Of a stretch of 64,000 nucleotides of DNA, positions 289 to 15,531 are shown piece by piece. Below the pieces are notes generated by a model. The model ran no database searches and was not told the origin of the DNA. It saw nothing but the letters and a program-made list of their open reading frames with translations. Position 1 is the stretch's first letter, and each line of letters starts with the position of its first letter. A program made the translations under genes and the position numbers. This DNA comes from a virus. Its lineage: Duplodnaviria; Caudoviricetes. Location of the stretch: the IMG/VR virus record IMGVR_UViG_3300032307_000764, positions 184,192 to 248,191 of that record. The stretch is one strand, 5' to 3'.

Positions 289-315
289 TTTTGTTTGTTT
301 AGTTTGTTTGGTTTA

Positions 316-347
316 GAGAGGGACACAATTGTCCCTCTCTTTTTTTG
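316..347 (+). terminator. Intrinsic terminator
   Basis: GAGAGGGACA-caat-TGTCCCTCTC hairpin plus T-tract. Confidence 0.8.
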
Positions 348-450
348 TGCATTCTTTTTCTGTGTAGCTATGCTGCATCATGAGGAGGTTCCCCACACCT
401 GGATACACCTGAAAACACCATAAACACCCCGGGGACACCCAGGAGGGGAC

Positions 451-474
451 TTGCGTATACGTGCGTACGTACGA
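451..474 (+). repeat. 24-nt exact direct repeat, copy 1 (TTGCGTATACGTGCGTACGTACGA)
   Basis: Identical copy at 3544-3567. Confidence 0.95.
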
Positions 475-488
475 GGGTTTTTATAGGT

Positions 489-525
489 AATCATTTTTTA
501 TAATGTAGAAAATTCCATATATTTG
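489..525 (+). promoter_or_regulatory. Bipartite early promoter AATCATTTTTT-N18-TATATTTG
   Basis: TAnnTTTG matches the Bacteroidetes sigma70 -7 element; constant 29-nt start-to-start spacing across many copies. Confidence 0.8.
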
Positions 526-550
526 TAATAACAATCTAAAACACAAACAA

Positions 551-832
551 ATGAGTGAAACAAAATCCCCTATTGGTTTAGTAGTTTATAAAGGAGACTG
601 GGAAGGAGCACAATGGACTATCACAGGAAATCCTAAGAAAGAACTAACTATTAAAGAGTTTGAATCTGCTTATGACTTCGAAGAGTTTATCCAGCAAAAG
701 GTTGACCATGTAGGAATTGAATTTGATTCAGAGTTTTGTCAGTTCTTTGCCTATGCTGAAACAGAAGGAAGAGCAATCAAGTTCCTAAGAGATATTGAAG
801 AATACTTTAAGAAAGTTCGAGATTTACTTTAG
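551..832 (+). CDS. Hypothetical early protein
   Basis: ORF downstream of promoter and A-rich leader. Confidence 0.8.
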   Translation: MSETKSPIGLVVYKGDWEGAQWTITGNPKKELTIKEFESAYDFEEFIQQKVDHVGIEFDSEFCQFFAYAETEGRAIKFLRDIEEYFKKVRDLL

Positions 833-851
833 TAAATCCATCAACATAAAA

Positions 852-876
852 AAAAGGGTCTTCGGACTCTTTTTTT
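852..876 (+). terminator. Intrinsic terminator (cUUCGg loop)
   Basis: AAAAGGGTC-TTCG-GACTCTTTT plus T-tract. Confidence 0.8.
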
Positions 877-925
877 GTGCGCTAAGGTTTTCCTGTAGCA
901 GCCACAAGAATTCGGGAGGAACCCC
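877..925 (+). repeat. About 49-nt extended junction repeat, copy 1
   Basis: GTG..CTAAGGTTTT...GTAGCAGCC.CA.GAATTC.GGAGGAACCCC; near-identical copies at 1561-1609 and 4021-4067. Confidence 0.9.
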
Positions 926-942
926 AGCGAACGAATCTTAGA

Positions 943-979
943 AATCATTTTTTATTTAGTAGAAAAATCTTTATATTTG
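943..979 (+). promoter_or_regulatory. Bipartite early promoter
   Basis: AATCATTTTTT at 943, TATATTTG at 972. Confidence 0.8.
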
Positions 980-1003
980 TATCAACCAATTAAAACAAAT
1001 ATT

Positions 1004-1195
1004 ATGTCATTAAGTCAAGAAGAAAAACAAGAGGTCCTAAAAGGAGTAGACCATGCAATTAACGCTACTGAACAAACAGTGTTGGCGTTGAAGGACACAT
1101 ACGAATTTGCTCATCTCAAAAGGATCTCAGACATCCTAGTTGCTCAAGAGCTTTCGTTGAAGGAATTAAAAGATTTACGAAACTCAATATCATAA
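1004..1195 (+). CDS. Hypothetical coiled-coil protein (start revised from 977 to ATG 1004)
   Basis: The TTG at 977 lies inside the promoter; A-rich leader precedes ATG 1004. Confidence 0.75.
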   Translation: MSLSQEEKQEVLKGVDHAINATEQTVLALKDTYEFAHLKRISDILVAQELSLKELKDLRNSIS

Positions 1196-1198
1196 GAT

Positions 1199-1420
1199 AT
1201 GAAAGCATTGTTAGGCTTAGTAGGATTGGCAATTGGAATTCTATTAATTGCTGCTTACTGTGAAAGCAAAAAGGATCCTTATGAAGAGGGTATGCACATG
1301 GACTATTCTATTGAATGTGAGAACGGTTTTGTTTACAAATCTCTAAATCATCGAAGGGGAACAATTCAAGTTCTAAACTCTGATGGAACACCTTTAAGAT
1401 GTGGAGAGAAAATACATTAA
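1199..1420 (+). CDS. Small membrane-anchored or secreted protein
   Basis: N-terminal hydrophobic segment. Confidence 0.75.
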   Translation: MKALLGLVGLAIGILLIAAYCESKKDPYEEGMHMDYSIECENGFVYKSLNHRRGTIQVLNSDGTPLRCGEKIH

Positions 1421-1530
1421 CTCATAAACGGCCAGGTTGGTAGACTGGGGGATATTCAGCGTACTATCCCAAGTCAAGGAATAATGTCTCGCCAGGCATG
1501 GAAGGCACCAAGATATAAACCGATGAGTTA
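1418..1530 (+). ncRNA. Candidate structured RNA (multi-branch) just before a terminator
   Basis: TAACTCAT/ATGAGTTA, CGG/CCG and TTGGT/ACCAA stems enclose a GACT..GGGATA/TATCCC.AGTC hairpin; GC-rich and non-coding. Confidence 0.4.
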
Positions 1531-1532
1531 TT

Positions 1533-1560
1533 AATCCCAAGAGCAATCTTGGGATTTTTT
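1533..1560 (+). terminator. Intrinsic terminator (GCAA loop); identical copy at 3991-4020
   Basis: AATCCCAAGA-GCAA-TCTTGGGATT plus T-tract. Confidence 0.85.
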
Positions 1561-1609
1561 GTGGACTAAGGTTTTCACGTAGCAGCCGCAGGAATTCTGG
1601 AGGAACCCC
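1561..1609 (+). repeat. Extended junction repeat, copy 2
   Basis: See 877-925. Confidence 0.9.
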
Positions 1610-1650
1610 CGGCGAGCTGATCAGACTAAACCTATAGGTTGATTTATAGG

Positions 1651-1687
1651 AATCATTTTTTTATTTGTAGAAAAATCTATATATTAG
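1651..1687 (+). promoter_or_regulatory. Bipartite early promoter
   Basis: AATCATTTTTT at 1651, TATATTAG at 1680. Confidence 0.75.
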
Positions 1688-1710
1688 CTTAGTAACTAAA
1701 AACAAGAACA

Positions 1711-2166
1711 ATGAATCACGATTTTATTAAAACAGTAAAAGTTATATCTGTTCAAGATTGGGACAGATTAGTTGAAAAAACCTATGGGAAAACTTATTCT
1801 TTTCAGCAACAAGATGATTGCAAAGATAGAGGTACAGAGTACATAACAGTTCCGTGTGAACCTGAAGATTATGAAAATGATACTATTCCTGAAATAATTA
1901 ATGGGGAGGAAATGGGTGTAAGTTTTAAAAGTTGGTTGGAAAGAGATCCAAAAGCTCTTTTAAACCCTTCCGCTAAAGAACTTGAGGGTTCTGATTATTA
2001 TTGGGGTAATACACCAGCTGATGAAAAAGAGTACAAAGAGAACCCAAGTAATATTAGCTTGTTCTGGGAAAGAAATTTTTATCCTCATGTAAGTATGATT
2101 GTTAATGATCTACATGCTAAAGGTATTCTTGAAGAAGGTGAGTATGGAATTGAAATTGATTGGTAA
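1711..2166 (+). CDS. Hypothetical acidic protein
   Basis: 151-aa ORF after promoter. Confidence 0.85.
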   Translation: MNHDFIKTVKVISVQDWDRLVEKTYGKTYSFQQQDDCKDRGTEYITVPCEPEDYENDTIPEIINGEEMGVSFKSWLERDPKALLNPSAKELEGSDYYWGNTPADEKEYKENPSNISLFWERNFYPHVSMIVNDLHAKGILEEGEYGIEIDW

Positions 2167-2182
2167 TTAAACAACAAGAAAG

Positions 2183-2428
2183 ATGAAAACACCAACAGCA
2201 GAAGAGTACATCAAAACAAATCTAACTGATTTTTGGGAAGGGGGTAAAGCACAGTATACAGGAGAAGATGTTGCAAAAGCAATGATTGAGTTCGCCAAGC
2301 TCCATGTAGAAGCTGCAATAAAAGCTTGTATAGAAGATGCACCTTCAGGGTCATCTACTGATACTGTAAGCCAAGAAGATGTTGTAGAAGCATTGAAAGA
2401 CAGTTATCCATTAGAAAACATTAAGTAG
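2183..2428 (+). CDS. Hypothetical protein
   Basis: ORF in operon with the previous gene. Confidence 0.8.
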   Translation: MKTPTAEEYIKTNLTDFWEGGKAQYTGEDVAKAMIEFAKLHVEAAIKACIEDAPSGSSTDTVSQEDVVEALKDSYPLENIK

Positions 2429-2443
2429 CATGGAAATTCCAAG

Positions 2444-2480
2444 AATCATTTTTTTCTTTAAGTAGAATTTTCTATATTTG
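2444..2480 (+). promoter_or_regulatory. Bipartite early promoter
   Basis: AATC at 2444, TATATTTG at 2473. Confidence 0.8.
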
Positions 2481-2507
2481 TAATGTTAATCAATTAAACA
2501 AAAACAA

Positions 2508-2645
2508 ATGGCAGAAAAAATCGTTTTAAGAGCATTTCAAGTTTGGTCAGCAACTTTAGGTTTGACAGTAGTATTTGGGATTGGTTTTGCAATCTATAGT
2601 TTAATCGTTGGTAACTATACCAGCACCGCAAGTTTTGAGTTTTAG
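2508..2645 (+). CDS. 45-aa single-TM membrane peptide (not in ORF track)
   Basis: MAEKIVLRAFQVWSATLGLTVVFGIGFAIYSLIVGNYTSTASFEF*; sits between promoter and terminator. Confidence 0.7.
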   Translation: MAEKIVLRAFQVWSATLGLTVVFGIGFAIYSLIVGNYTSTASFEF

Positions 2646-2667
2646 TTTTGTTTGTTTTGTTTTGGTT

Positions 2668-2696
2668 AAAGAGGAACTTCGGTTCCTCTTTTTTTG
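2668..2696 (+). terminator. Intrinsic terminator (UUCG loop)
   Basis: AAAGAGGAAC-TTCG-GTTCCTCTTT plus T-tract. Confidence 0.85.
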
Positions 2697-2809
2697 TGGG
2701 CTAACTTTTTCCTCCCTGCAGGGTAGGAATCTGGAGGAACCCCCGAACCCCGATTCTAGAATCATTTTTTTCTCCAGATTATAATGATTACATTGTAAGA
2801 AAAATAATA

Positions 2810-3094
2810 ATGGCCGATTGCTATAACTGTAAGTACAGAGGAGAAATTCCGGGGAGTGCACACTCATGCTGTGAAATCACAAAACATGTTCCTGCATTAA
2901 GTAAGGTTAAATCAGAATTTCTAGATATAGCTCTTATGATAGGGAAAGCTAAAATAAAAGGTAGCGATGGTACCAATGCAGTTAAACTAAATCCTGAAGG
3001 TGTTAAAAACGGATGGGCTAGTTGGCCTCTAGACTTTGACCCAGTCTGGATAACATCCTGTGAATTATTCAAAGCCAAACCCAAACGTAAATAG
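2810..3094 (+). CDS. Cys-rich hypothetical protein
   Basis: CxxC...CC...C pattern. Confidence 0.8.
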   Translation: MADCYNCKYRGEIPGSAHSCCEITKHVPALSKVKSEFLDIALMIGKAKIKGSDGTNAVKLNPEGVKNGWASWPLDFDPVWITSCELFKAKPKRK

Positions 3095-3095
3095 G

Positions 3096-3132
3096 AATCA
3101 TTTTTTTCTTTGTAGAAAATTCTATATATTTG
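3096..3132 (+). promoter_or_regulatory. Bipartite early promoter
   Basis: AATC at 3096, TATATTTG at 3125. Confidence 0.8.
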
Positions 3133-3156
3133 GTATAACCAATTAAACAAAAGGAC

Positions 3157-3387
3157 ATGCCAACTACAGACACTTTTTATGTTTCCTCTAAGGACAACAA
3201 AGTAAGAAGAACCACAGAGCCCGGAAGAGAGTACTTCATCAAAGGAGGAAAGAAAGAAGGACAAGCTAAATACTTAATCGAAGTATTTGGATACGGCCAC
3301 GAAGAAGTAGCTAAAGAAGTTAGGGACATGGTTGATAAAGGAGGAATGGACCAAAAATTATTTAGGATCAGAGTAGAGACCAGATAA
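3157..3387 (+). CDS. Hypothetical basic protein
   Basis: ORF after promoter. Confidence 0.75.
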   Translation: MPTTDTFYVSSKDNKVRRTTEPGREYFIKGGKKEGQAKYLIEVFGYGHEEVAKEVRDMVDKGGMDQKLFRIRVETR

Positions 3388-3543
3388 AGATATACAAGAA
3401 TGGAGAAAGCCTAGAGATAGGTACTTGCTAAAGTGATTAAACCTCGCTTGTATGAAATCCCAAGTTAACTCTTGGGATTTTTTGTGTGCTAAGGTTTTGT
3501 GTTAGCACATGCTATAAGCACCCGGGGTTCCCCAGGGGAGGGG

Positions 3544-3567
3544 TTGCGTATACGTGCGTACGTACGA
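3544..3567 (+). repeat. 24-nt exact direct repeat, copy 2
   Basis: Identical to 451-474. Confidence 0.95.
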
Positions 3568-3642
3568 AGGGATTTTCTTGGAATCATTTTTTTCTTTGAA
3601 GTAGGATACTTATATTTAAGATAACCAATTAAAACAAATAAC

Positions 3643-3798
3643 ATGTACTCTTTAAAATGTGATTACTACACAAAACAATTCTCAACTCTTAATCAACTCC
3701 TAGGTGACATTGCACTCTCAGGAATGGACCCAAATTATGAGATTACCTTCAATGGTAAAGGAACCGGTGAACTAGCTATTGATCTTATTCAATTTTAA
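3643..3798 (+). CDS. 51-aa hypothetical protein (not in ORF track)
   Basis: MYSLKCDYYTKQF...LIQF*; follows a promoter motif. Confidence 0.7.
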   Translation: MYSLKCDYYTKQFSTLNQLLGDIALSGMDPNYEITFNGKGTGELAIDLIQF

Positions 3799-3801
3799 AC
3801 C

Positions 3802-3954
3802 ATGTTCATAATACTCTTTATCATCTTATCATTCTTTACCTTGATATCAATAGGAGCAGCTTATGCAATTAAAGAAAGAAAAATGACTATTACAGCAATC
3901 ATTATATCCTCAGTCTGGATCCTTTCTTTATATTTAATCTTATATTTGAGGTAA
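3802..3954 (+). CDS. 50-aa two-TM membrane peptide (not in ORF track)
   Basis: MFIILFIILSFFTLISIGAAYAIKERKMTITAIIISSVWILSLYLILYLR*. Confidence 0.65.
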   Translation: MFIILFIILSFFTLISIGAAYAIKERKMTITAIIISSVWILSLYLILYLR

Positions 3955-4020
3955 GCTTTAGTTCATAGAAGCAGTAATAAATTATCACTAAATCCCAAGA
4001 GCAATCTTGGGATTTTTTTT

Positions 4021-4067
4021 GTGCTGAAGTTTTCTGGTAGCAGCCACAGGAATTCTGGAGGAACCCC
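4021..4067 (+). repeat. Extended junction repeat, copy 3
   Basis: See 877-925. Confidence 0.9.
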
Positions 4068-4216
4068 CGCTGGAAAACCCCTAAAACCCCTAAAGTCCCT
4101 CTCGGAAAAAAGTTTGAATTATTTCCAAGAAATTCCAAGAATCATTTTTTATATCGAGTAGAAGTTTCTATATTAGCTATGTTAATCAATTAAACAAAAC
4201 CAAAAAACAAAACATT

Positions 4217-4531
4217 ATGAAAACTTTAACAGCAGAACAAAAAGCAAAAAAGGCAGCTTATGACAAAGCTTACAGAGCAAAGAAAAAAGCTCAAACTCAA
4301 ATGGAAGCTTTCAAAATCCCAAGCGAAGACAAATTCGAAAAAAGCTTTGACTATCCGGTTCGACTTTACAAAAACTTGAAAATGGAGAAAACAAATTCTT
4401 ACTGTGCAGCAGCAGGAGCACTCTTAAGCTTTGTTAAAATCAAAAACGAAAACAACCAAATCGTTTTCAGAGTTAAAAGAACTGGTCGCAGAACTTTCTA
4501 TACAACTTCAAATGAACTTATCCAAAAATAA
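4217..4531 (+). CDS. Hypothetical basic protein (K/A-rich N-terminus, possibly nucleic-acid binding)
   Basis: KAKKAAYDKAYRAKKKA; ORF after promoter. Confidence 0.8.
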   Translation: MKTLTAEQKAKKAAYDKAYRAKKKAQTQMEAFKIPSEDKFEKSFDYPVRLYKNLKMEKTNSYCAAAGALLSFVKIKNENNQIVFRVKRTGRRTFYTTSNELIQK

Positions 4532-4550
4532 GAGCATCCAAAAAACAAAT

Positions 4551-4574
4551 GAGGAGACTTCGGTCTCCTTTTTT
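4551..4574 (+). terminator. Intrinsic terminator (UUCG loop)
   Basis: GGAGAC-TTCG-GTCTCC plus T-tract. Confidence 0.85.
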
Positions 4575-4686
4575 GTGACCTAAGGTTTTGCAAAAGACGT
4601 ATGCATGTAAGACGAGGGAACCTCCGAGACTTTAAGCAGCTCTAGCAAAAACTGATACATCTATCAAAAACTGATAATACATAGCT

Positions 4687-4711
4687 TTACCATAAGCTCC
4701 TGAGGAACCCC
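4687..4711 (+). repeat. 25-nt repeat TTACCATAAGCTCCTGAGGAACCCC (second junction subfamily)
   Basis: Identical copy at 7363-7387; partial copy at 7004-7026. Confidence 0.9.
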
Positions 4712-4747
4712 AGCCATTTTACTGGAGATCTTACCAGGAGTTTTTGA

Positions 4748-4815
4748 TCCTTTTCTATCCTACTTCTACCTCTTTTCTACTCTTCTTCTACAACTCCTCT
4801 ACTCTTCTTCTAATC
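4748..4815 (+). repeat. Pyrimidine-rich low-complexity tract (TTCTAC-like units)
   Basis: No G on the + strand over about 65 nt. Confidence 0.7.
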
Positions 4816-4909
4816 ACCTGAGGAACCCCAGGAACCCTAGCATTTTCTATTTGGGAATCATTTTTTTATTTGTGGAAAATTCTATACATTTATAACAAAT
4901 AAAACAAAG

Positions 4910-5101
4910 ATGAATAACTACGCTAAACTAGTTTCACCAGACGGAGAAATCGTAGGAGTACTTGAACTTGAGGCAGGAACTTTAAACGAGACCCTCGTTG
5001 TTGAAGCAGCTCTTGAATTGGGTATTAAATTAGAAGCATGCACTGAGGAAGAGTACAACAATTTTGATGGTGATGAAATCAAACCAAGTTGGATGGAATA
5101 A
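4910..5101 (+). CDS. Hypothetical acidic protein
   Basis: ORF after promoter. Confidence 0.75.
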   Translation: MNNYAKLVSPDGEIVGVLELEAGTLNETLVVEAALELGIKLEACTEEEYNNFDGDEIKPSWME

Positions 5102-5172
5102 TTTCAAAAATCATTTTTTATCTTCAGTAGATTTTTCTATATTAGCTAGGTTAATCAATATAACCACTCAAC

Positions 5173-5349
5173 ATGAAACAGGTACTTAAAGTCTTAGCAT
5201 TTCCATTCATCTTGTTATGGAGCTTATGTCAATCATTGCTAGAAATCCTTGAAGCATTATTCGCAAAGCCATTTGTGTTTCGCATGGGAAAGAACAGCAT
5301 AGAAATCGGGATCGTGCCCCTGGTACTAATCATCTGGTTAATCTGCTAG
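5173..5349 (+). CDS. 58-aa membrane peptide (not in ORF track)
   Basis: MKQVLKVLAFPFILLWSLC...IVPLVLIIWLIC*. Confidence 0.65.
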   Translation: MKQVLKVLAFPFILLWSLCQSLLEILEALFAKPFVFRMGKNSIEIGIVPLVLIIWLIC

Positions 5350-5426
5350 AAAATTTACTAAAATCATTTTTTATCTTCAGTAGATTTTTCTATATTAGCT
5401 AAGTAATCAATTAAACACAAATACAT

Positions 5427-5816
5427 ATGCGAATCTTAATTTTATCAGTGTTACTAATGGTAATTACCAGCTTCACCACAGTAACACTAGCTGCTATCCC
5501 TAGCAGCCAAGGCCTGGTTACCGATACAGTGTTAAAGAAGTATTCATACTTAGACACTTCAAAGGTAATCAACACTGAACAGCTCAAGATTGACCCAAGG
5601 TGGGTTCAAGGGCTATCTAATATTTCAAATTACAAACCCATCCTACATATTGACCCTGGCAGCCAGGACACGGTTTCTAATTATACTTTAGCTCGAATCA
5701 CAGAACCAATATTACACATCGACCCTGGCAATCAGGAATTTGGTTCTCTATACAACTATAATTCATTAGCTATTTTTAAGGAACCTGTACTACACATTGA
5801 CCCCGGTCGTGATTAA
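5427..5816 (+). CDS. Secreted protein with three P(I/V)LHIDPG repeats
   Basis: Signal-peptide-like N-terminus; three repeats, the last at the C-terminus. Confidence 0.8.
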   Translation: MRILILSVLLMVITSFTTVTLAAIPSSQGLVTDTVLKKYSYLDTSKVINTEQLKIDPRWVQGLSNISNYKPILHIDPGSQDTVSNYTLARITEPILHIDPGNQEFGSLYNYNSLAIFKEPVLHIDPGRD

Positions 5817-5831
5817 GAAATAAAAAAAAAG

Positions 5832-5856
5832 AAAAGACTCTTCGGAGTCTTTTTTT
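5832..5856 (+). terminator. Intrinsic terminator (UUCG loop)
   Basis: AAAAGACTC-TTCG-GAGTCTTTT. Confidence 0.85.
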
Positions 5857-6011
5857 GTGGCCCAAGGGTTTAAGGCAAATAAGGCAAACAAGGAAGTGCT
5901 CCTGAGGAACCCCCGTACATCTTCCATCAATCATTTTTTTATTTAGAGAAAAATCCATACATTTATACTAGCCAATTAAAAATATTATTACCTTTACCTA
6001 AACAAAAAGAC

Positions 6012-6188
6012 ATGAAAGTAAAAATAGGAGAAAAGATTTACGATTCAGAAAAAGAACCTATTATGGTGATATTATCAGATGCAGACAAAAAAAATATTCA
6101 CAATATGTTACCAACAGCAACAAAATATTGTAGTTTTCCTGATGAAATCCCAACAGAAGATATAAAAGAATTTATGAAGACCACATAA
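6012..6188 (+). CDS. 58-aa hypothetical protein (not in ORF track)
   Basis: MKVKIGEKIYDSEKEPIMVILS...FMKTT*. Confidence 0.7.
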   Translation: MKVKIGEKIYDSEKEPIMVILSDADKKNIHNMLPTATKYCSFPDEIPTEDIKEFMKTT

Positions 6189-6197
6189 TCATAATAC

Positions 6198-6297
6198 AGT
6201 CAGGTGGTGTAATTGGTAACACGGGGTTCGAGTCCCCAATCTTCTCGAAGGGAAGATAAAGGCTGGCAAGATACAGGTTCGAGCCCTGTCCTGACTA
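6198..6297 (+). tRNA. Atypical tRNA-like RNA (possible CGA anticodon, very long extra arm)
   Basis: Acceptor AGTCAGG/CCTGACT, D-arm GTGT/ACAC with GG loop, T-arm ACAGG-TTCGAGC-CCTGT; 100 nt; 4-bp GGGG/CCCC arm. Confidence 0.55.
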
Positions 6298-6362
6298 CAA
6301 AATCATTTTTTTAATTGGAAGTAATTCCTTACATTTATACTAACCAATTAAAACAAAACAAA

Positions 6363-6518
6363 ATGAAAACACACAAATTAGTTTACCCACTAGCTTACAC
6401 TTCACTCTTCACATTAGTAATAGGAGCAATCCTAATGGTAGGAGGAAATCACATAGGAGATTATATGGTTGCAGGAGGTGCAATCGTAGCAACATTACTC
6501 ATGCACAAATTAGATTGA
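6363..6518 (+). CDS. Two-TM membrane peptide (start revised from 6315)
   Basis: The track start overlaps the promoter; A-rich leader before ATG 6363. Confidence 0.7.
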   Translation: MKTHKLVYPLAYTSLFTLVIGAILMVGGNHIGDYMVAGGAIVATLLMHKLD

Positions 6519-6662
6519 GTTTGATTGGTTAACACATACAACTCAAATCAGAAAGACCAGCTTCCTCCAGCTGGTCTTTTTTTGTGGACCTTTGACAAAT
6601 CTTTAAGAAGACAACTGGAACTTAGCAGGAACCCCCGATATATAAGAGATAACAACAACATT

Positions 6663-6878
6663 ATGAAAGAGTATCTTTTATCAATCAAGAATGGTGAAAC
6701 CATCAACACAATCAAAGCACATACACTAGAAGAAGCAATTCTCTACTTTGCAAAGGTTAAAAACCTATCACAAGATTCATTATTAGACATCTATAGTGTT
6801 AATCCTAGACCATTCACAATAAACCTTGCTGATTATTGTGAAGCTCATAAAATAGATCCTTACATGCAAACTAAGTGA
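6663..6878 (+). CDS. Hypothetical protein (start revised from 6525)
   Basis: Upstream extension crosses a terminator and junction motif; GATATATAA at 6637. Confidence 0.7.
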   Translation: MKEYLLSIKNGETINTIKAHTLEEAILYFAKVKNLSQDSLLDIYSVNPRPFTINLADYCEAHKIDPYMQTK

Positions 6879-7075
6879 TAGTAAGTATTCCTTATTCCTA
6901 AGGTTTACATCCCTATTTTCCAGATAATAGTATACTAGCATAAGTCTGAGGAGGTACCCCATTCTATTTTACCATAGCTTAACATAAGGTTTACCATAGC
7001 CTAGCATAAGCTCCTGAGGAACCTCCCTAAGGATACTAAAAACAAGTAACAGGATATATACAATAAAACACAACC

Positions 7076-7303
7076 ATGGAATTACTAAGATTTGAAGATT
7101 ACATCAACGAAAATAACAACATATCTGAACAAGAAGATATGATGATTAAAAATTTTAAAACTGATGTTCAAAGAGTACTTATGCAAGACACAGTAGCTAG
7201 ACCTAACTTTGCGGAAGGAACCTTCGGGAGTAGACCAGCATCTTTACCAGAAATGATCTCTTCTCTAGAATCTATTATTGCTGATTATAAATCTAAGATG
7301 TAA
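7076..7303 (+). CDS. Hypothetical protein with MELLRFEDYINE N-terminus
   Basis: GATATATAC at 7053; N-terminus resembles the MK..F..F.NE family. Confidence 0.75.
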   Translation: MELLRFEDYINENNNISEQEDMMIKNFKTDVQRVLMQDTVARPNFAEGTFGSRPASLPEMISSLESIIADYKSKM

Positions 7304-7514
7304 AGTTAACCACATACCTACAAAAAGAGATCTTAGGATCTCTTTTTTTGTGACCATAAGACTTACCATAAGCTCCTGAGGAACCCCAGAAAAGATCAGC
7401 ATAGCTCCAGCATTATATCTTACATTAGCTGCATGGGATACTGGATCTGGGCTGATTAGAATCATTTTTTATATTGTGGAATTTTCCATACATTAGCTAA
7501 ACAAACAATTAGCT

Positions 7515-7718
7515 ATGAGTGAAAGTAACTTTGAAAAGAATCTCAAAAAGAAGAACCCTGATATTGACATTAATAGGATGCTGAATATCTTTGATGCGAA
7601 GATAGAAGAGGTACAGGCATCACAGGGACTTGAAGAGATTAGATTACCCTTAGGATGTGATCTCAATAAAGCAATCTTTGCTTCTGTGCTTTCAGAATAC
7701 TTAAACACAAAAATATAA
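7515..7718 (+). CDS. Hypothetical protein
   Basis: ORF after promoter. Confidence 0.7.
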   Translation: MSESNFEKNLKKKNPDIDINRMLNIFDAKIEEVQASQGLEEIRLPLGCDLNKAIFASVLSEYLNTKI

Positions 7719-7723
7719 CATCA

Positions 7724-7891
7724 ATGTGGGTTTTTAATATAACATCAATTGGAGTTTTTTTCATTCTATTTTTAATTCTTTGCCTAATGGCAGGTCTTGC
7801 AATTGGCTTGATCATTGGAGATAGTAGAAACAATCTACCGGGTCATAGAAACCCACCACCTCCTCCAACAAAAAAAAAGGATGAAGTTTAA
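7724..7891 (+). CDS. 55-aa membrane peptide with poly-Pro tail (not in ORF track)
   Basis: MWVFNITSIGVFFILFLILCLMAGLAIGLIIGDSRNNLPGHRNPPPPPTKKKDEV*. Confidence 0.6.
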   Translation: MWVFNITSIGVFFILFLILCLMAGLAIGLIIGDSRNNLPGHRNPPPPPTKKKDEV

Positions 7892-8144
7892 TGAGTTCTG
7901 TCATAGAATATGTGATGGTCTATATGATCCACGATTCCCTATGGAAGACCAATGCTCTGGCTATCACCAACTAAGAAACGTAGTACTTAACAAAATCCCT
8001 CCACACCCTTTAGAAATAAAAGACTGGCTGGATGATCCAGAAGCACCACCACCACAAGAAAGATATCTAAGAGCACTACACCCAAAGCTAAGAAAATTCG
8101 TTATAGATAATTGGGACAAAATAAAAGAACTAGAGGTTGATTGA
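7881..8144 (+). CDS. Hypothetical protein (start revised from 7815)
   Basis: ATG overlaps the end of the upstream peptide. Confidence 0.7.
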   Translation: MKFNEFCHRICDGLYDPRFPMEDQCSGYHQLRNVVLNKIPPHPLEIKDWLDDPEAPPPQERYLRALHPKLRKFVIDNWDKIKELEVD

Positions 8145-8353
8145 TTAACACCACATCCGCTAAAAAAAGAAAGAGACTAACTGTCTCTTTTTTTGTGACC
8201 TAATCTTACCCAAATGCTTACCAGATAATCTGCTGGGGTTCCCCAGTACATCTACCAGCATTAACTTAGGACCTCATAACATATTCCAAGAATCATTTTT
8301 TATATTGTAGAAAAATCCATACATTTACTCTATAACCAATTAAACAAAACAAA

Positions 8354-8737
8354 ATGATTATCTTCACTTCAAACATTACAAAAGTACAGGTATACCCTAA
8401 ATACAGACCAAAAATCTATGAATCATCCTTAGCATATAGAAAGGACTACAAAAAGCGAGTAGGAACCAAATTCTTGTTCTTTCCAGTCTATGAAATAGTA
8501 CCTCACGCAGTTATCCATGAAGGAGGATTATTTAATTCAACTGAAGAGTTTGAGTGTGATCTAAAAGACTTCAAAAGTGATTACTACTACTTCGAAGATG
8601 GTGTACTATATGAAAACCCACATTGCACCATCTATATGAACGATCGTTCTAGCAAAGAGGTACACTTTGAAACAGTAGACGAGCTAAATGCCTATGTAGA
8701 AGAGCTCAAATCTAAAGCCCCACATATCATTGTTTAA
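8354..8737 (+). CDS. Hypothetical protein
   Basis: ORF after promoter. Confidence 0.8.
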   Translation: MIIFTSNITKVQVYPKYRPKIYESSLAYRKDYKKRVGTKFLFFPVYEIVPHAVIHEGGLFNSTEEFECDLKDFKSDYYYFEDGVLYENPHCTIYMNDRSSKEVHFETVDELNAYVEELKSKAPHIIV

Positions 8738-9057
8738 ACCCCCCTTAAAACACACATTATATATGAAGTAACTTATCATCCATATATCACATCTAAAGGC
8801 TCTTAAACAAGCCTAAAACAACACCCAAGGTATCACTAAAATATACCCTCCCCGAAGGCCTCCCAAGAAGAGGCCTTTTTTAATGCCCCTAGGAATCCCT
8901 ACCAGCTAGGGATAAATCTGAGGGGGTTCCCCCAATTGGGACAACATTTAAAAAGCAAGGATATCAGGGTATACCCCAGTAGCATAGGCAGCATAAATGC
9001 TCCGGGGAACCCCCATTTAAAACACCTATAAAACACCTTGGAAACACCCCTGGATAG

Positions 9058-9232
9058 GCCCTTAAAATAGGGGTCCAAAATGCCTAAAAAGGACCCCTAA
9101 AATAGGGGGTAAAAACGGGGGGAGAGACCCCTAAAATAAGGGGGGCTAAAAGGGGTAAAAAGGCCCTTAAAATAGGGGGTAAAACAGGGGGCTAGGACCC
9201 TAAAAACGGGCCTTATATACGTATACTATATA
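9058..9232. repeat. About 35-nt period array of CCC(C/T)TAAAATAGGGG inverted repeats plus a TATACGTATA palindrome
   Basis: Copies near 9059, 9094, 9128, 9164, 9198; palindrome at 9216-9225. Confidence 0.85.
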
Positions 9233-9276
9233 GGGGGGGATAAAAATGTAATTGATCCCTTAGTCGGCCTGTTTCT

Positions 9277-9570
9277 AAATTTCTACGTGCGGGCCCATAC
9301 CCCCTTTTTAGGGATTCGCCTCGAAATCTTGGCTACTATCTTGGATAGATCTTGGCTACCCCCCTAAAGGGTAAATCCTGTAGGTGTTCCCATTTTAGAA
9401 ATTTGCGTGCGTATCGGAAAGGGGTGTTTTTAGGGTTCGCCTCGGGCCTTACTATGTTGATCCAGCACTACGCGCGCGAAGAAGGGGGGTAAACCCTCAA
9501 AAACCCTTGGTGTTCAGTTTTGAAAATTTTACGTGCGGGGCGGAACAGGGGTTTCCTAGGGCTCGCCTCG
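9277..9570 (+). repeat. Three ~47-nt imperfect direct repeats AAATTT..(A/G)CGTGCG-N~20-TAGGG(AT/T/C)TCGCCTCG
   Basis: 9277-9323, 9399-9444, 9523-9570 (period 121-126 nt). Confidence 0.85.
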
Positions 9571-9580
9571 ATTACTCTTT

Positions 9581-9589
9581 GATATATAG
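9581..9589 (+). promoter_or_regulatory. GATATATA(A/G) promoter-like motif (probably for a phage sigma factor, late/middle class)
   Basis: About 20 copies directly upstream of starts, e.g. 10283, 10999, 12759, 14095, 15520, 16922, 21974, 28739, 35858, 36854, 42410; minus strand at 15505, 20115, 30056. Confidence 0.75.
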
Positions 9590-9592
9590 AGT

Positions 9593-9949
9593 ATGTCTAA
9601 GATCAATCACGTATTCGGTAACATACAGGTGTTTCATGAGGATCTTCCTAGTGGTAGGGATTATAATAGATATAAATCTTTATGTTTGGCTTTAAAAGGA
9701 GATGGATGGAGAATACCTACTATACAGGAGCTTACTTATCTTTATGGTTTACATGAATTGAATATCTTAGGATTTAATCCTCATGGATCTTATTATAGTT
9801 CAACTAATCGTATTAATTCTCTTGGCCAAGTAAAGACGCATATTTTAGAATGTATTTATTTTGGAGATGGTACATTAATAGGCGGTTCCATTTTAGCATA
9901 TAAAGATGATTTTCTAGTGAGACCTGTTAGGGATATAAGTTTTTTATGA
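9593..9949 (+). CDS. DUF1566/Lcl-C-like small protein
   Basis: WRIPTIQEL...YYSST...VRPVR motifs. Confidence 0.65.
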   Translation: MSKINHVFGNIQVFHEDLPSGRDYNRYKSLCLALKGDGWRIPTIQELTYLYGLHELNILGFNPHGSYYSSTNRINSLGQVKTHILECIYFGDGTLIGGSILAYKDDFLVRPVRDISFL

Positions 9950-10272
9950 TGAGGAGTTACAATCTAGGTATAATAGAGGTTCTTGATCTTTCTGATCTTG
10001 GTGTTATGAGTTACAAAAGGGCTAGTAAGATTAAGAAGGATAGGTATGGTTATGATGGTCGTCGATGGAGATTCCCTACTATGAAAGAGATGGATTATAT
10101 TAGAAATCTGAGTAGGAGTCTTGGTGTTCATATAGCGGATTACAGATATTATTGGACTTCTACGAGTCCTTATCAGTCTTCCACTCTGGGATATCATATG
10201 GAGACAGGTACTGGTAGTTTGATTAAGGATACAACTGCGGCTTGTAAAATGATCTTGATTCGGGATTTGTAA
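9946..10272 (+). CDS. DUF1566/Lcl-C-like small protein
   Basis: WRFPTMKEM...YWTST...ILIRD motifs. Confidence 0.6.
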   Translation: MMRSYNLGIIEVLDLSDLGVMSYKRASKIKKDRYGYDGRRWRFPTMKEMDYIRNLSRSLGVHIADYRYYWTSTSPYQSSTLGYHMETGTGSLIKDTTAACKMILIRDL

Positions 10273-10291
10273 TCTTTATATAGATATATAA

Positions 10292-10849
10292 ATGAAAATG
10301 TTAAAAATGAAGCACGTTAAATTATTCGAGCAATTTATAAGTTCTGAATCAGGTATGAATCCTGTAATTCTGGCAAGAGTTGATTATTCTAAGATAACCG
10401 AGGGTGGAGAAGCTCCTCATGGTTTTTGTCAGCCGAATGCTTACTATGTTTACTATTACACAAACGGTTTACCTCCGGAGTTATCATTTTATGATGACAA
10501 GGTTAAAGAATCATCTGTTGAAGACCCAACTAGTGCTGCTGAATTAATATTAACTGCAGACCAAAATGGACTTTATATGTTACAACATAAGGGATTAGTA
10601 TTTCGTGTTGATCCTAGTTTCTCTCCTGAGGATTACAAGAATGAATTAGAAAAATTTATAACTAGCTTTAATGAAAACCCTGAGGGGTATGAAGGTGATA
10701 CGTGCTATCAATTTTTAGAAGATGAAAGAATGAAAAATATCCTTACTCCTGAATTTTTAGCACACTGTGAGGCAATTACTACGGGAAGCTCAACAAACAC
10801 AATGGAGCCAAGGATAGAATTAGTTTTCAAAGTGGATCAGTTAGATTAA
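10292..10849 (+). CDS. MKHVKLFEQF-family protein (start may be 10307)
   Basis: Conserved N-terminal motif; GATATATAA upstream. Confidence 0.85.
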   Translation: MKMLKMKHVKLFEQFISSESGMNPVILARVDYSKITEGGEAPHGFCQPNAYYVYYYTNGLPPELSFYDDKVKESSVEDPTSAAELILTADQNGLYMLQHKGLVFRVDPSFSPEDYKNELEKFITSFNENPEGYEGDTCYQFLEDERMKNILTPEFLAHCEAITTGSSTNTMEPRIELVFKVDQLD

Positions 10850-11014
10850 ATCATACCATATAAAAATCAAAAAGACCTTCGGGTCTTTTTTTGTGAGATA
10901 ATGATTTGCCCTCCGGGCCCTAGATTTTTCTACAGTTCTTAAAATCGGCCCTGGGGGCCGTGATCTTAGACTGCTTTGAATTCACTTTGATTTTCACGGA
11001 TATATAAGTAAGAT

Positions 11015-12076
11015 ATGAAACATATAAAGACTTTCGCTGCTCTAAATGAATCTTTACAAGATTCTTCTGAGATTTTAGATTTTATTAAAAACTCTCCAGA
11101 AGGAAGGGACTTACTTAAGGTTAGTAAATACCCCACGTTCGAAGAGAATTTCGAGGCCAAAAGATCCGGTAGAGTACATTGTAACGGAATAGGATCTAAG
11201 ACCTATGTAGAAAAAACACCTAGGGGATATTGCTTTCAGAGTCTTTCGAATGGTAAAATATTTGGTCAAGAATGTTACCCAACTATTGAAGAATGTATAA
11301 GAAAATTATGGTCTAATGCAGTTAGTAAATATGTGACTAATAATTACGGTGTTAAAAAACAAGAAATTAGAGATTGGGTATTAGTGAATATACCTGTAGG
11401 TAGTGAATTAGGAAATAAGGAGATATTGGATTCTTTTAGTGAAGCATCTAAAAAAGAAGCTCCAGATTTTGAAGAGATTATTAAAAAAAGCAGATCGATT
11501 AGAATTCTTGAGGATGTATTTGGAGCTAGATTCGCTCGTGCAGAAAATAAGCTAAATCCTAATGATGTCATTTACAAATCAGGACCCATTAATCTTTTTC
11601 AACCATTCGGATTAGATATTTGCGATAATGAAGAAAATCCGTATACTTTCTCTGTAGAGGTTAAGGTTAATCTATCTGGGAAAAATAAATCATCCACTGA
11701 TTATAATAATAATAATAATATAATTTTAGGTGATCCTTCTACCGCTTTAAAATATTTAGATAAAGTTATTCCACCATGGGCTTTAAAAATAGTTGAAAAT
11801 CCTAGTAAATTTATATACTATAGGACTCCTAAGACTTCTCCTGAATTAATAGAATTGTTAAGGAGTCTTTTTCTTAATAACACCGTAGGGTCAACAGTTT
11901 ATGATGCTTTAGATAATGCTTTATCAAGTATTAAATCAAGTAATCCCCTCGCATTTGAATCTGTTATAAAAAAATTAGAATCCGCTGGAGCATTTCCTGA
12001 ATTAACTAGTAAGTACAGAGAATCCGAAAGCGGTACACTAAAAGGAGCATCTATTCTAAATAGATTTGGTATTTAA
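11015..12076 (+). CDS. MKHIK-family protein ending KGASILNRFGI
   Basis: 353-aa ORF. Confidence 0.85.
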   Translation: MKHIKTFAALNESLQDSSEILDFIKNSPEGRDLLKVSKYPTFEENFEAKRSGRVHCNGIGSKTYVEKTPRGYCFQSLSNGKIFGQECYPTIEECIRKLWSNAVSKYVTNNYGVKKQEIRDWVLVNIPVGSELGNKEILDSFSEASKKEAPDFEEIIKKSRSIRILEDVFGARFARAENKLNPNDVIYKSGPINLFQPFGLDICDNEENPYTFSVEVKVNLSGKNKSSTDYNNNNNIILGDPSTALKYLDKVIPPWALKIVENPSKFIYYRTPKTSPELIELLRSLFLNNTVGSTVYDALDNALSSIKSSNPLAFESVIKKLESAGAFPELTSKYRESESGTLKGASILNRFGI

Positions 12077-12115
12077 CATATTAATTCATAATGTATAGAA
12101 CACGTTAATAAAACT

Positions 12116-12712
12116 ATGAAACACATTAAGCTATTCGAATCCTATCATAATGGTAAGTTGTTATGTTATCATGCAACAGGTAATAAAGGGGGAAACTGGA
12201 AAGATATATTTCTTGGAAATTTTAAAATAGGAGGAGGCTCTAATTTTGGACCTGGTCTTTATACTTTTTATAATCTGGAGGATCTAAATAGTGACATGGA
12301 TTGGAGTAGAGTTCCTGTTATTATCGAGTTTGAAGTTACTAACTATGACGGGTTTTATGTGGAAGTACCAGAGATAGCTGTTAAGATGTTTGGAGAGTAT
12401 AATATCAAGAATCAGGTTGATAATATCATGGGTGTAGATTGGGGTAGGAATAATCCTGATTTACTTCAAAAGATTATAGATAGCCCAGAAAGCTTTCCTA
12501 CTATTGCAAATCTTAGTAAATATAGAAGAGAGGATTCTCTTGAGGTAAAGCAAGCTAAGTGGATTTATGGTAGAGAGCTTAAAGGAAGTATTCTCAATAA
12601 TGTGGATGGAATTTTTTGCGTGATCCACGATGTGTCATTAGCTTCTCCTAAAAGATTTTCACTTGATGGTGGTAACACATGGAATACAGGTGAGGAGCTT
12701 AATAATTTTTAA
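12116..12712 (+). CDS. MKHIK-family protein with a possible ADP-ribosyltransferase-like fold
   Basis: LCYHAT...F..GGGSNFGPGLYT resembles the PARP-type YHGT...G.GIYF motif. Confidence 0.5.
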   Translation: MKHIKLFESYHNGKLLCYHATGNKGGNWKDIFLGNFKIGGGSNFGPGLYTFYNLEDLNSDMDWSRVPVIIEFEVTNYDGFYVEVPEIAVKMFGEYNIKNQVDNIMGVDWGRNNPDLLQKIIDSPESFPTIANLSKYRREDSLEVKQAKWIYGRELKGSILNNVDGIFCVIHDVSLASPKRFSLDGGNTWNTGEELNNF

Positions 12713-12783
12713 AGTATAAGATACTTAGGGGTTCTTTGAATACCCTACGATTTTCTTGGATATATAATGTGTTAATTAATACT

Positions 12784-13404
12784 ATGATCAATAAGAGAGA
12801 CTACGAAAGAATCCACGGAGCTAATCAAGATAGCTCTGAAATAGAGAGAAGATGGTTCCTATTTGAACAAGAGCAAGCAGCTTTAACTCAACAGATGTCA
12901 TTATCTGGTGCTGGTGGAGCATCCCCCTTACCTGAGCCAGAGCCAGCTCCTAGCGGGTTACTTATCACATCGGCAGACTTTGTTAGCGGTTCGGTTTTTG
13001 ATTCAGGAACAACAACCGAGTTGGGAACTAATGGTGTTGATGGATTTGAGATCACGTCTGCTGGTTCTAATCAAATGGATGAGGGATACATAGCATACGA
13101 TCTAACAACGGATCTTATTGATAGAATCACTGCTGCATATATAGAGGCTGGTCTAGATCCTACAAGCTCTGAAGGCTATGTTTGGAATGCAACTTGGGGT
13201 GCTGGTAGCACAATAACAACAGGTCTAATTAAATTTGGCTTTCAAGATAGCACACCTGCGTCTCTCTATATTCAAACAATCGACCCTGCGGATACATCTT
13301 GGGAGAATTCTGGATATGATGGAACCCCCTTGGTTGGTACATTCTTATTCCCGTTAACCATAACCATCTACACGCCTTTAACTGATAAAAATAATTGGTG
13401 CTAA
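12784..13404 (+). CDS. Hypothetical protein with Pro-rich linker, possibly virion-associated (start revised from 12736)
   Basis: PLPEPEPAP linker, G/S/T-rich C-terminal domain; promoter at 12759. Confidence 0.7.
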   Translation: MINKRDYERIHGANQDSSEIERRWFLFEQEQAALTQQMSLSGAGGASPLPEPEPAPSGLLITSADFVSGSVFDSGTTTELGTNGVDGFEITSAGSNQMDEGYIAYDLTTDLIDRITAAYIEAGLDPTSSEGYVWNATWGAGSTITTGLIKFGFQDSTPASLYIQTIDPADTSWENSGYDGTPLVGTFLFPLTITIYTPLTDKNNWC

Positions 13405-13418
13405 TCATATAGAATAAT

Positions 13419-14090
13419 ATGATTGTACATAGACCCGCGAACTCTAGAGGTAATCCTAAAAATAACTGGATAAACTCCTATAGGACATTTAGCTTTCCTG
13501 GATACTTTGATCCTAAATATAGAAACTTTGGCAACCTGAGAACAATCAACGATGATCGAGTCCAACCAGGAGGCCACGTACCAATTCACGAGCATAGGAA
13601 CATGGAGATCTTTGGTTACGTAGTGGAAGGAGCTTGTAGACACACAGACAGTCATGGAAATGTGTTTGATATTCCAGCAGGTGCAGTTCAAAGAATGAGC
13701 ACTGGTAGCGGCATCAGTCATACCGAGGGTAATGCTTCAGAAACTCCAAATAGATATCTCCAGCTTTGGATAGAGCCTAATGTTTTAGATACTGAACCTA
13801 TTCATGAGTGGCATCAGTTCACCAGAGAGGATAAGCTAAATAGATTTTGTGATATCACTGAGAAGCTTCCTATAAAACAGGACGCTAGGCTTCTTGCTGG
13901 CATATTTACCAATGATTATGAATTTGTTTTGGATAATGAGCGTAGATATTATCTATATGTTGTTCTAGGTGATCTTGAGATAAATTCGATACCTTTGATT
14001 GAAGGTGACGGGTTAAGCTTTGTTGCAGAATCTTTAATTATGATTAAAAATCCCAATAATTGCGAGGTGATACTATTTGATCTTGTCTAA
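13419..14090 (+). CDS. Pirin family protein (YhhW/quercetinase-like)
   Basis: LRTINDDRVQPG...HEHRNMEI...HTDSHGN...VQRMSTGSGISHTE...LQLWI. Confidence 0.92.
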   Translation: MIVHRPANSRGNPKNNWINSYRTFSFPGYFDPKYRNFGNLRTINDDRVQPGGHVPIHEHRNMEIFGYVVEGACRHTDSHGNVFDIPAGAVQRMSTGSGISHTEGNASETPNRYLQLWIEPNVLDTEPIHEWHQFTREDKLNRFCDITEKLPIKQDARLLAGIFTNDYEFVLDNERRYYLYVVLGDLEINSIPLIEGDGLSFVAESLIMIKNPNNCEVILFDLV

Positions 14091-14106
14091 TACTGATATA
14101 TAAGAT

Positions 14107-14925: not shown

Positions 14926-14939
14926 GACCCTTAAATTAT

Positions 14940-15500
14940 TTAGATAGATTTTAATCTATCTATTGGAAAGTTATCAACTGAATACTTAGTTACAATAGCA
15001 TTAGAATTAGTTAGTCCTTGCATTGCGTCATTGTATATGTCTGTGATGTCTGTTGTTTTTGTAATAATCATTCCTGCATCCTGAGCTTTCTTCATTATGA
15101 AGTGATTGTATATTCTTGATCTTCTATCGTCACCTAATGTTTCGGATTTAGCAACGACTATGATAGATCTTAAATTTCCACCTTTACTTCTTTCTTTAGC
15201 CCATTCCTTTACCGCCCACCATACACTTCCCATAACATCTTGCATGTTGTTTCTACCTGTTAAGGCGTCAGAATATTCGGTATCAGTAATTTCAGATTTA
15301 GACGAGAAATGTATTTCTAATGTTACTGTGTTGTCTTCCCATCTTCTTACCATGATAAAGACCTTGTATATAGCACCATCGATTTCAAATTCGTAGGTCA
15401 TATCCTCGTCCCTTGCGGGAATTCTTTTTATGACACGGAGATCTGGGATTGTGTCCCACATCTCATTAATAAATTGTGAATATCTAAATATCTTTTTCAT
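14940..15500 (-). CDS. Hypothetical protein MKKIFRYSQFINE (start revised from 15533)
   Basis: Minus-strand GATATATAA at 15505-15513, 4 nt before the ATG. Confidence 0.75.
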   Translation of the reverse strand: MKKIFRYSQFINEMWDTIPDLRVIKRIPARDEDMTYEFEIDGAIYKVFIMVRRWEDNTVTLEIHFSSKSEITDTEYSDALTGRNNMQDVMGSVWWAVKEWAKERSKGGNLRSIIVVAKSETLGDDRRSRIYNHFIMKKAQDAGMIITKTTDITDIYNDAMQGLTNSNAIVTKYSVDNFPIDRLKSI

Positions 15501-15531
15501 CCTATTATATATCTTTCGTGATATATAAGAC

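Follow-up and report, generated by a model that had tools for sequence, protein, structure and literature searches.

A PeSL-like array of early-gene cassettes, probably shuffled through shared promoter and terminator elements, in a putative freshwater jumbo phage

The linear virus record IMGVR_UViG_3300032307_000764 of IMG/VR (Caudoviricetes; 248,191 bp, estimated to be 85% complete) ends in a 64,000-nucleotide (nt) stretch, positions 184,192 to 248,191, that was analysed here and is denoted the window. At window positions 300-8900, an earlier note made from the sequence alone had described a row of small open reading frames (ORFs) separated by similar terminators, junctions and promoters. This locus raises the question whether such repeats are only regulatory signals of small early genes or also the places at which these genes are lost, gained and reordered. 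Comparison with related phages favors the second answer, with a probability of roughly 0.75: the array in the window, some 9 kb long, would be the hypervariable distal third of a 32-kb early-gene region, in which self-contained units are exchanged via portable homology, in a manner similar to the promoter-early stem-loop (PeSL) cassettes of T4-type phages.

The repeats at 300-8900 are real, lie where the earlier note placed them and are far above the chance level. A generic terminator scan finds 19 terminators compared with 7.9 +/- 2.8 expected, and matches to CTGGGGNNCCCCAG, the word of the box described below, at 10 or more of its 12 positions number 14, all within the array, compared with 0.6 expected from shuffles. 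In a genome-wide word scan, the repeat words are nearly confined to 160-193 kb of the genome, which corresponds to window -24,000 to +9,000 (negative positions lie upstream of the window). Because these words begin about 23 kb upstream of the window, the array is larger than originally described, the window covering only the last quarter of about 32 kb (window -23,040 to about +8,930). The entire array lies on the plus strand and contains 45 promoters with one invariant spacing and 24 predicted intrinsic terminators. The strand bias of the constituent words, counted over the whole genome, is pronounced: AATCATTTTTT occurs 48 times on the plus strand versus once on the minus strand, TTTTTTGTG 30 times versus none, and GGAACCCC 22 times versus six.

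The promoters are the most uniform component of the array, with exactly 29 nt between the AATCA word and the TAnnTT[T/A]G box in 45 of 45 cases. A unit typically consists of the AATCATTTTTT word, the TAnnTT[T/A]G box 29 nt on, and an A-rich conserved leader, in many units AACCAATTAAAAC, followed by one, two or three small ORFs that belong to no known family; about half of the units are closed by an intrinsic terminator. A scan for sigma-70 promoters (TTGACA N17 TATAAT type) yields 25 matches compared with 28.9 expected, none of which coincides with the repeats. The array promoters are probably early promoters that are read by the host RNA polymerase. The TAnnTTTG consensus, which we take to be the Bacteroidota-type promoter, together with a Por_Secre_tail protein (type-IX-secretion sorting domain) encoded in the record, indicates a Bacteroidota host. 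The major capsid protein is of the T4 type (Pfam Gp23 match, 129 bits, E=1.4e-38, genome 20606-21967), and the record is taken to represent an uncultured freshwater jumbo phage with a host of the Bacteroidota type.

The earlier note counted about 15 units, each with a terminator, a junction and a promoter. The 15 fixed-spacing promoters are indeed present at 300-8900 (Table 1), but there are only 12 junctions, five promoters directly following a stop codon, and two units carry the word GATATATA instead. The latter, the late-type word of this genome, replaces the early promoter before ORFs 6663 and 7076 (ORFs are named here by their start positions), 15-20 nt ahead of the start codon, and is elsewhere absent from the plus strand of the array. 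ORF 7076, behind the second late-type word, begins MELLRFEDYINE.

Eleven of the 12 junctions start with a TTTTTGTG terminator (at 342, 872, 1556, 2691, 3479, 4016, 4570, 5852, 6579, 7345 and 8190), and the twelfth terminator, at 8874, lacks the GTG. Each terminator heads an 80-90-nt composite of a hairpin, a T-run, GTG, in many cases GCTAAGGTTTT, a spacer that is constant in length and free in sequence, and a 14-bp box. The UUCG or GCAA hairpin loops that had been ascribed to all units are found in half of the junctions (UUCG in four, GCAA in two), the remaining six having other loops. Similarly, of the junction words that were thought to be shared, CTAAGGTTTT is exact in only four of the 12 junctions and present with at most two mismatches in three more; the box is present in all 12, in three of these in the inverted form (GGTTCC). 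The hairpins of terminators 1533 and 3991 are identical, as reported; with respect to the junctions described as near-identical, modules 1533-1611 and 3991-4069 share 90% identity, but module 849-927 is only 68% identical to 1533-1611.

The box is a near-palindrome, CTGRGG-WW-CCCCNG, with the arms CTGGGG and CCCCAG around a central AA or TT. A search with the junction pattern yields three IMG/VR contigs of the same design (G1, G2 and G3), which were found without the box as a search criterion; in the query genome and these three relatives, the box starts 39-47 nt past the start of the TTTTTGTG word, with the mode at 44 nt. In 54 arrays with a total of 314 terminators, the box follows 245 of them at this spacing, 240 of 268 first boxes lie at 40-49 nt, and the central dinucleotide is AA in 190 and TT in 23 boxes. 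The distance from the box to the promoter, in contrast, varies from 25 to 600 nt, so that the box is tied to the terminator and not to the promoter. The intervening spacer conserves its length but not its sequence and folds no better than dinucleotide shuffles (mean z -0.2). Given the absence of a folding signal, this mode of spacer conservation and the strong over-representation of the box, the box looks like a DNA-level site. An Rfam search for a ribozyme or known RNA acting on the repeats recovers one tRNA only, and no complement of the box or of GCTAAGGTTTT was found elsewhere in the genome. The possibility that the box is a promoter of the extracytoplasmic function (ECF) type was rejected: both orientations occur at the same position, and no fixed-distance -10-like word follows.

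On these grounds, the chances are a little short of even that the box is a binding site of a dimeric DNA-binding protein acting together with the terminator. Candidates for this role, and no more than candidates, may be the products of the first two conserved array genes (genome 161,190-162,250; window -23,001 to -21,941), which match PHROG 323, 'transcriptional regulator, D5-like' (E=1.5e-7 and 6.8e-9), and have weak helix-turn-helix (HTH) hits in Pfam. A MoxR-type AAA ATPase and two VWA-domain paralogues are encoded further along the array. A stronger proposition, which we consider speculative and unlikely, is that the T-run/GTG and the polar AA-centred box 44 +/- 3 nt apart form a dedicated device instead of passive homology: a phage protein, possibly one of the two D5-like HTH regulators, would bind the box and thereby either promote exchange at the neighboring T-run or link transcription termination to the shut-off of early genes. 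If this is true, the lytic phage would have a system for cassette exchange or insulation that is guided by a protein.

Two further words were observed between the box and the promoter. A 21-nt word with strictly alternating purines and pyrimidines, GCGTATACGTGCGTACGTACG, is located at window 453-475 and 3546-3566 and at genome position 177,201, and G1, G2 and G3 have copies of it in equivalent positions. A perfect 12-bp palindrome, AACCTATAGGTT, is present at window 1629-1640 and -3891, as well as twice in G2 and twice in G3, and may be a second operator-like site.

The evidence of exchange comes from the comparison of relatives. Among the matches listed for the terminator-box pattern, there are more than 120 metagenome-contig stretches, mostly with freshwater-looking and a few with marine names; of these, 53 loci have at least two such modules and at least two such promoters each. 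In the proximal half of the array, the genes are common to the query and G1-G3 and mostly retain their order, with some translocations, whereas the distal half, including the window, has almost no genes in common with the arrays of G2 or G3. The relatives at 75-97% identity, among them contigs denoted here by L and a number, differ by insertions, deletions, replacements, duplications and order changes of whole units.

The alignment of the query with G1 (about 80% nucleotide identity, 24 kb) contains nine indel or replacement events. Of its 18 block edges, 11 map to promoters or terminator-box elements, which together account for 10% of the region (P=2e-7); when only intergenic edges are considered, 11 of 12 lie in the elements, which make up 40% of the intergenic DNA (P=3e-4), and six edges are no more than 4 nt away from the first base of a promoter. 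The query module at window -6142 is a chimera, with the left part derived from one G1 module and the right part from the next one; the partner is switched in TTTTTTTGTGNGCT and again immediately past the box, with the loss of one 560-bp cassette. At another site, a 320-bp query-specific unit has a promoter copy on each side, and G1 has just one promoter copy there.

The same pattern recurs in the closer relatives. In L096 (95-97% identity), three out of three successive block boundaries fall at the T-run/GTG. The cassette at about 3096-3524 (a promoter, the 76-amino acid (aa) ORF, a terminator and a spacer) is missing from L098, L164 and L166, three independent assemblies from different samples, the edges being the first base of the promoter and the box. 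L098 has an extra cassette that extends from the T-run/GTG (GTGGG) of module 2691 to promoter P5 (2760), and L164, which spans window -54 to 9235, shows five replaced or indel segments, most of whose edges coincide with a T-run, the start of a promoter or the end of a box. The same units appear in different orders in L120 and L138, and the latter holds three copies of the ORF 4217 family, which is also duplicated in the query and other relatives (Table 1). L100 joins the cassette of ORF 4910 to a gene from which it is separated by 13.8 kb in the query, and the overlap, 72 nt long, lies in the promoter; given that this is a single 2.8-kb contig, the joint could be an assembly chimera. When all relatives are pooled, 24 of 58 distinct edges map to elements that cover 12% of the array (P=1.9e-8), 14 of these to promoters, six to the 3' end of the box and four to the T-run. 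The test by which the earlier note could have been refuted thus goes in its favor: gene content and gene order vary among the relatives, with breakpoints in the junction elements.

Repeat copies within one genome also appear to interact. Three of the query junctions have spacers with 92-97% mutual identity, compared with 76-86% identity to their positional counterparts in G1. Hairpin and spacer classes combine freely, one 16-nt hairpin being found with four spacer classes and one spacer class with four hairpins, and the post-box sequence has its own flavor in each genome. Because this concerted evolution affects sequence that is under no consensus constraint, it argues for real recombination among the repeats.

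The mechanism that we propose is that elements of 20-75 nt, repeated dozens of times and common across the lineage, act as portable homology. Recombination between copies within one genome would delete, duplicate or move units, and recombination between co-infecting relatives would replace them. With exchange occurring between shared elements, the region would turn over its genes yet keep its regulatory frame. The exchange is probably driven by homology rather than site-specific: the cassettes are self-promoted, the crossovers occur at three different elements, and the 248-kb record (85% complete) contains no match to Phage_integrase or Resolvase, the families of tyrosine and serine recombinases. 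For the same reasons, and with no folding signal in the junctions, the integron-like framing of the earlier note is unsupported, but the shuffling of self-contained cassettes that the note proposed holds up in a weaker form.

Several observations weigh against portable homology. Coding DNA contains six of the 18 query/G1 edges, and one gene-sized insertion of 472 bp is bordered by no element on either side. Alignments run into conserved motifs, so the edges at the first base of a promoter partly reflect motif conservation and not the crossover point. The relatives are all metagenome assemblies, possibly chimeric at 40-70-nt repeats, and only some of the variants are present in several independent assemblies. 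No RecA/UvsX-type gene is detected with Pfam RecA in the record, which is only 85% complete. Finally, selection alone would retain whole-unit changes only.

This last point is the core of a purely regulatory explanation, under which the repeats reflect the need of every small early gene for a strong promoter and for insulation by a terminator. The breakpoints would coincide with them only because selection eliminates changes that disrupt genes or signals, and the repeats would not promote exchange. The large share of the elements in the intergenic DNA, by virtue of which intergenic breakpoints often fall there by default, and the events without an element at their ends are compatible with such an explanation, and strong consensus selection could mimic concerted evolution in the promoters. 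It is nevertheless unlikely, in view of the within-genome homogenization of spacers that are free in sequence, the chimeric junctions that change partner inside the shared T-run/GTG, the indel between two promoter copies where the relative has one, and the near-complete placement of the intergenic edges in the elements.

If the repeats do promote exchange, this could in principle be site-specific, in line with the integron-like idea of the earlier note, with the 14-bp box, perhaps together with the T-run/GTG 44 nt upstream, targeted by a dedicated recombinase or nuclease that moves box-to-box units. The near-palindromic box with its asymmetric center, predominantly AA, the fixed distance from the T-run over a free-sequence spacer, the block edges at the box 3' end and the T-run, and the confinement of the box to the array, with no copies elsewhere in the genome, all speak for such a site. 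However, promoter edges outnumber box edges, boxes are inverted without the genes being inverted, the cassettes, unlike those of integrons, have their own promoters, and the record yields no match to GIY-YIG nucleases in addition to the lack of Phage_integrase and Resolvase, its sole HNH gene (HNH_3) being located at window ~32,200, far outside the array; we regard site-specific exchange as quite improbable. Very improbable, in our assessment, is that the terminator-junction modules are small mobile repeats of a non-autonomous kind, akin to miniature inverted-repeat transposable elements (MITEs), bacterial interspersed mosaic elements (BIMEs) or Correia elements, which spread through intergenic DNA and carry the terminator by chance. 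The module is an 80-90-nt composite with 24 copies in this genome that fall into sub-families, and it consists of a palindromic unit and a likely protein-binding box; BIMEs likewise combine a palindromic unit with a protein-binding box. Yet no terminal inverted repeats or target duplications are seen in the modules, which are confined to one region and one strand and occupy positionally conserved sites in the relatives, always after an ORF on the coding strand.

The array thus understood, as a set of units exchanged via portable homology, most closely resembles the PeSL cassettes in the hyperplastic regions of the T4-type phages RB49/phi1, PST/T4 and nt-1/KVP40, for which exchange by homologous recombination between the motifs has been proposed and partly demonstrated (Arbiol 2010, PMC2839356; Comeau 2014, PMC4122927). 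Shared features include the T4-type head genes (Gp23 here); small ORFans in a variable early region (here, the 20 window ORFs without a Pfam family, with the motifs confined to 160-193 kb); an early promoter and a leader repeated between genes, here 45 times; and insertions, deletions, replacements and displacements between close relatives, with their ends inside or next to the motifs and chimeric motifs at the joints. There are also differences. The promoter is not of the sigma-70 type; instead, an invariant word lies 29 nt ahead of a Bacteroidota-type -7 box. In PeSLs, a stem-loop lies immediately upstream of the early promoter, and the repeat runs on to the ribosome-binding region and the start codon; here, the stem-loop stands apart from the promoter, heading a separate terminator-box composite that precedes about half of the promoters at a variable distance. 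Many crossovers are at the T-run/GTG and the box, not at the promoter; and the scale is larger, with 45 promoters in 32 kb. For PeSLs, mini-circles have been demonstrated by inverse PCR, at a frequency of about 1 in 10^5. Because there is no excess of sigma-70 promoters and TAnnTT[T/A]G takes their place in the repeats, the array can be viewed as a PeSL variant built on the promoter of another host.

The array shares with integrons a row of small, unrelated, one-strand genes between repeated sites, with content and order that vary among relatives; the differences are the lack of a detectable integrase and of a folded attC-like signal, the presence of a promoter in each cassette and of a terminator in many, and the existence of several breakpoint elements. 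The host-takeover module of phage SPO1, located in the terminal redundancy, consists of densely packed small early genes with reiterated strong promoters and terminators, as do other phage early regions of this kind. The similarity lies in the small early genes with near-identical host-type promoters and terminators in between; we are not aware of a comparable fixed-distance box in SPO1. The new components here are the Bacteroidota-type promoter and the fixed-distance box.

Table 1. Predicted features of the array within the window, positions 315-8934.
Feature	Position	Strand	Remarks
Terminator-junction module 1	315..396	+	hairpin, T-run+GTG (342), inverted box
Early promoter P1	489..525	+	AATCA word to -7 box, 29-nt spacing
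ORF, 93 aa	551..832	+	no family
Terminator-junction module 2	857..927	+	UUCG loop; CTAAGGTTTT exact; box
Early promoter P2	943..979	+	
ORF, 63 aa	1004..1195	+	
ORF, 73 aa	1199..1420	+	forms one moving unit with ORF 1004 (L120, L138)
Terminator-junction module 3	1533..1611	+	GCAA loop; same hairpin as 3991
Early promoter P3	1651..1687	+	
ORF, 151 aa	1711..2166	+	PHROG 27943; homologues on 13 unrelated phage contigs
ORF, 81 aa	2183..2428	+	
Early promoter P4	2444..2480	+	no preceding terminator
ORF, 45 aa	2508..2645	+	
Terminator-junction module 4	2668..2745	+	common with L098 up to GTGGG; L098 then has another spacer and the extra cassette
Variant early promoter P5	2760..2796	+	degenerate -7 box TACATTGT; kept in L098
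ORF, 94 aa	2810..3094	+	
Early promoter P6	3096..3132	+	left edge of cassette missing from L098, L164, L166
ORF, 76 aa	3157..3387	+	in cassette ~3096-3524
Terminator-junction module 5	3456..3536	+	inverted box CCGGGGTTCCCCAG
Early promoter P7	3582..3618	+	
ORF, 51 aa	3643..3798	+	in G3 tandemly doubled and located after the ORF 4217 homologue
ORF, 50 aa	3802..3954	+	
Terminator-junction module 6	3990..4069	+	GCAA loop; L164 has 435 extra bp directly after box
Early promoter P8	4140..4176	+	
ORF, 104 aa	4217..4531	+	multi-copy family: 3 in this array, 3-4 in relatives
Terminator-junction module 7	4551..4626	+	UUCG loop; 16-nt hairpin recurs at 3 other junctions with different spacers
Long spacer	4627..4855	+	two further boxes, 4702 and 4820
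Early promoter P9	4856..4892	+	
ORF, 63 aa	4910..5101	+	cassette joined elsewhere in L100
Early promoter P10	5109..5145	+	
ORF, 58 aa	5173..5349	+	
Early promoter P11	5362..5398	+	near-identical to P10
ORF, 129 aa	5427..5816	+	internal 23-residue repeats
Terminator-junction module 8	5832..5915	+	UUCG loop; box at +52
Early promoter P12	5929..5965	+	
ORF, 58 aa	6012..6188	+	
tRNA-like gene, 100 nt	6198..6297	+	Rfam tRNA, 43.4 bits; missed by ARAGORN
Early promoter P13	6301..6337	+	homology to L098 and L164 resumes at first base
ORF, 51 aa	6363..6518	+	
Terminator-junction module 9	6555..6637	+	
Late-type word GATATATA	6637..6644	+	instead of early promoter
ORF, 71 aa	6663..6878	+	
Late-type word GATATATA	7053..7060	+	
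ORF, 75 aa	7076..7303	+	
Terminator-junction module 10	7326..7389	+	box at +33
Early promoter P14	7460..7496	+	
ORF, 67 aa	7515..7718	+	
ORF, 55 aa	7724..7891	+	
ORF, 87 aa	7881..8144	+	
Terminator-junction module 11	8170..8246	+	perfect inverted box CTGGGGTTCCCCAG
Early promoter P15	8291..8327	+	
ORF, 127 aa	8354..8737	+	different neighbours in L120, L138, L105
Last terminator-junction module	8846..8934	+	T-run without GTG; box ~45 nt on

None of the 20 tested window ORFs belongs to a Pfam family, and the GenBank phages show no DNA-level match to the array region and, at the protein level, only distant matches to a helicase. Homologues of ORF 1711-2166 are found at 13 IMG/VR loci (45-73% identity, one match partial) that range from 31 to 59% GC and do not have this array, at least two pairs of them looking duplicated; the gene appears to have travelled widely. 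ORF 8354-8737 has no relatives in IMG/VR. An exact protein look-up for strain-level variants recovers identical copies of the same phage only, and the Logan contig L050 (run ERR2848576), 100% identical to window 5372-15816, represents the same phage in another sample; its break falls precisely on promoter P11, and the repeat there is presumably the cause.

The tRNA-like gene at 6198-6297 has 45 nt where the model expects 17; a GGGG/UUCGAGU/CCCC arm would place CGA (Ser) as the anticodon, with a very long extra arm behind it. The array is closed by a GC-rich non-coding block at window 8880-9600, which contains four CCCYTAAAATARGGG iterons with a spacing of about 35 nt (9059-9164) and three 55-60-nt units ending in TTCGCCTCG (9271-9570), the last of which is 88% identical to one in G3. 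This block may be an origin or a regulatory hub.

The invariant promoter model (the upstream word, 29 nt, the -7 box), together with the terminator model, should aid the annotation of early genes in this group of uncultured phages and help to pick the ORFans that are likely to be involved in host takeover and anti-defence. The fixed-distance box, which is conserved where every neighboring gene has turned over, lends itself to direct tests. With respect to phage evolution, modular shuffling of the PeSL type, described in T4-like phages of enterobacteria and Vibrio, would with this array also extend to a freshwater lineage that is widespread and has a Bacteroidota-type host, the same evolutionary device apparently having been rebuilt on a different promoter grammar.

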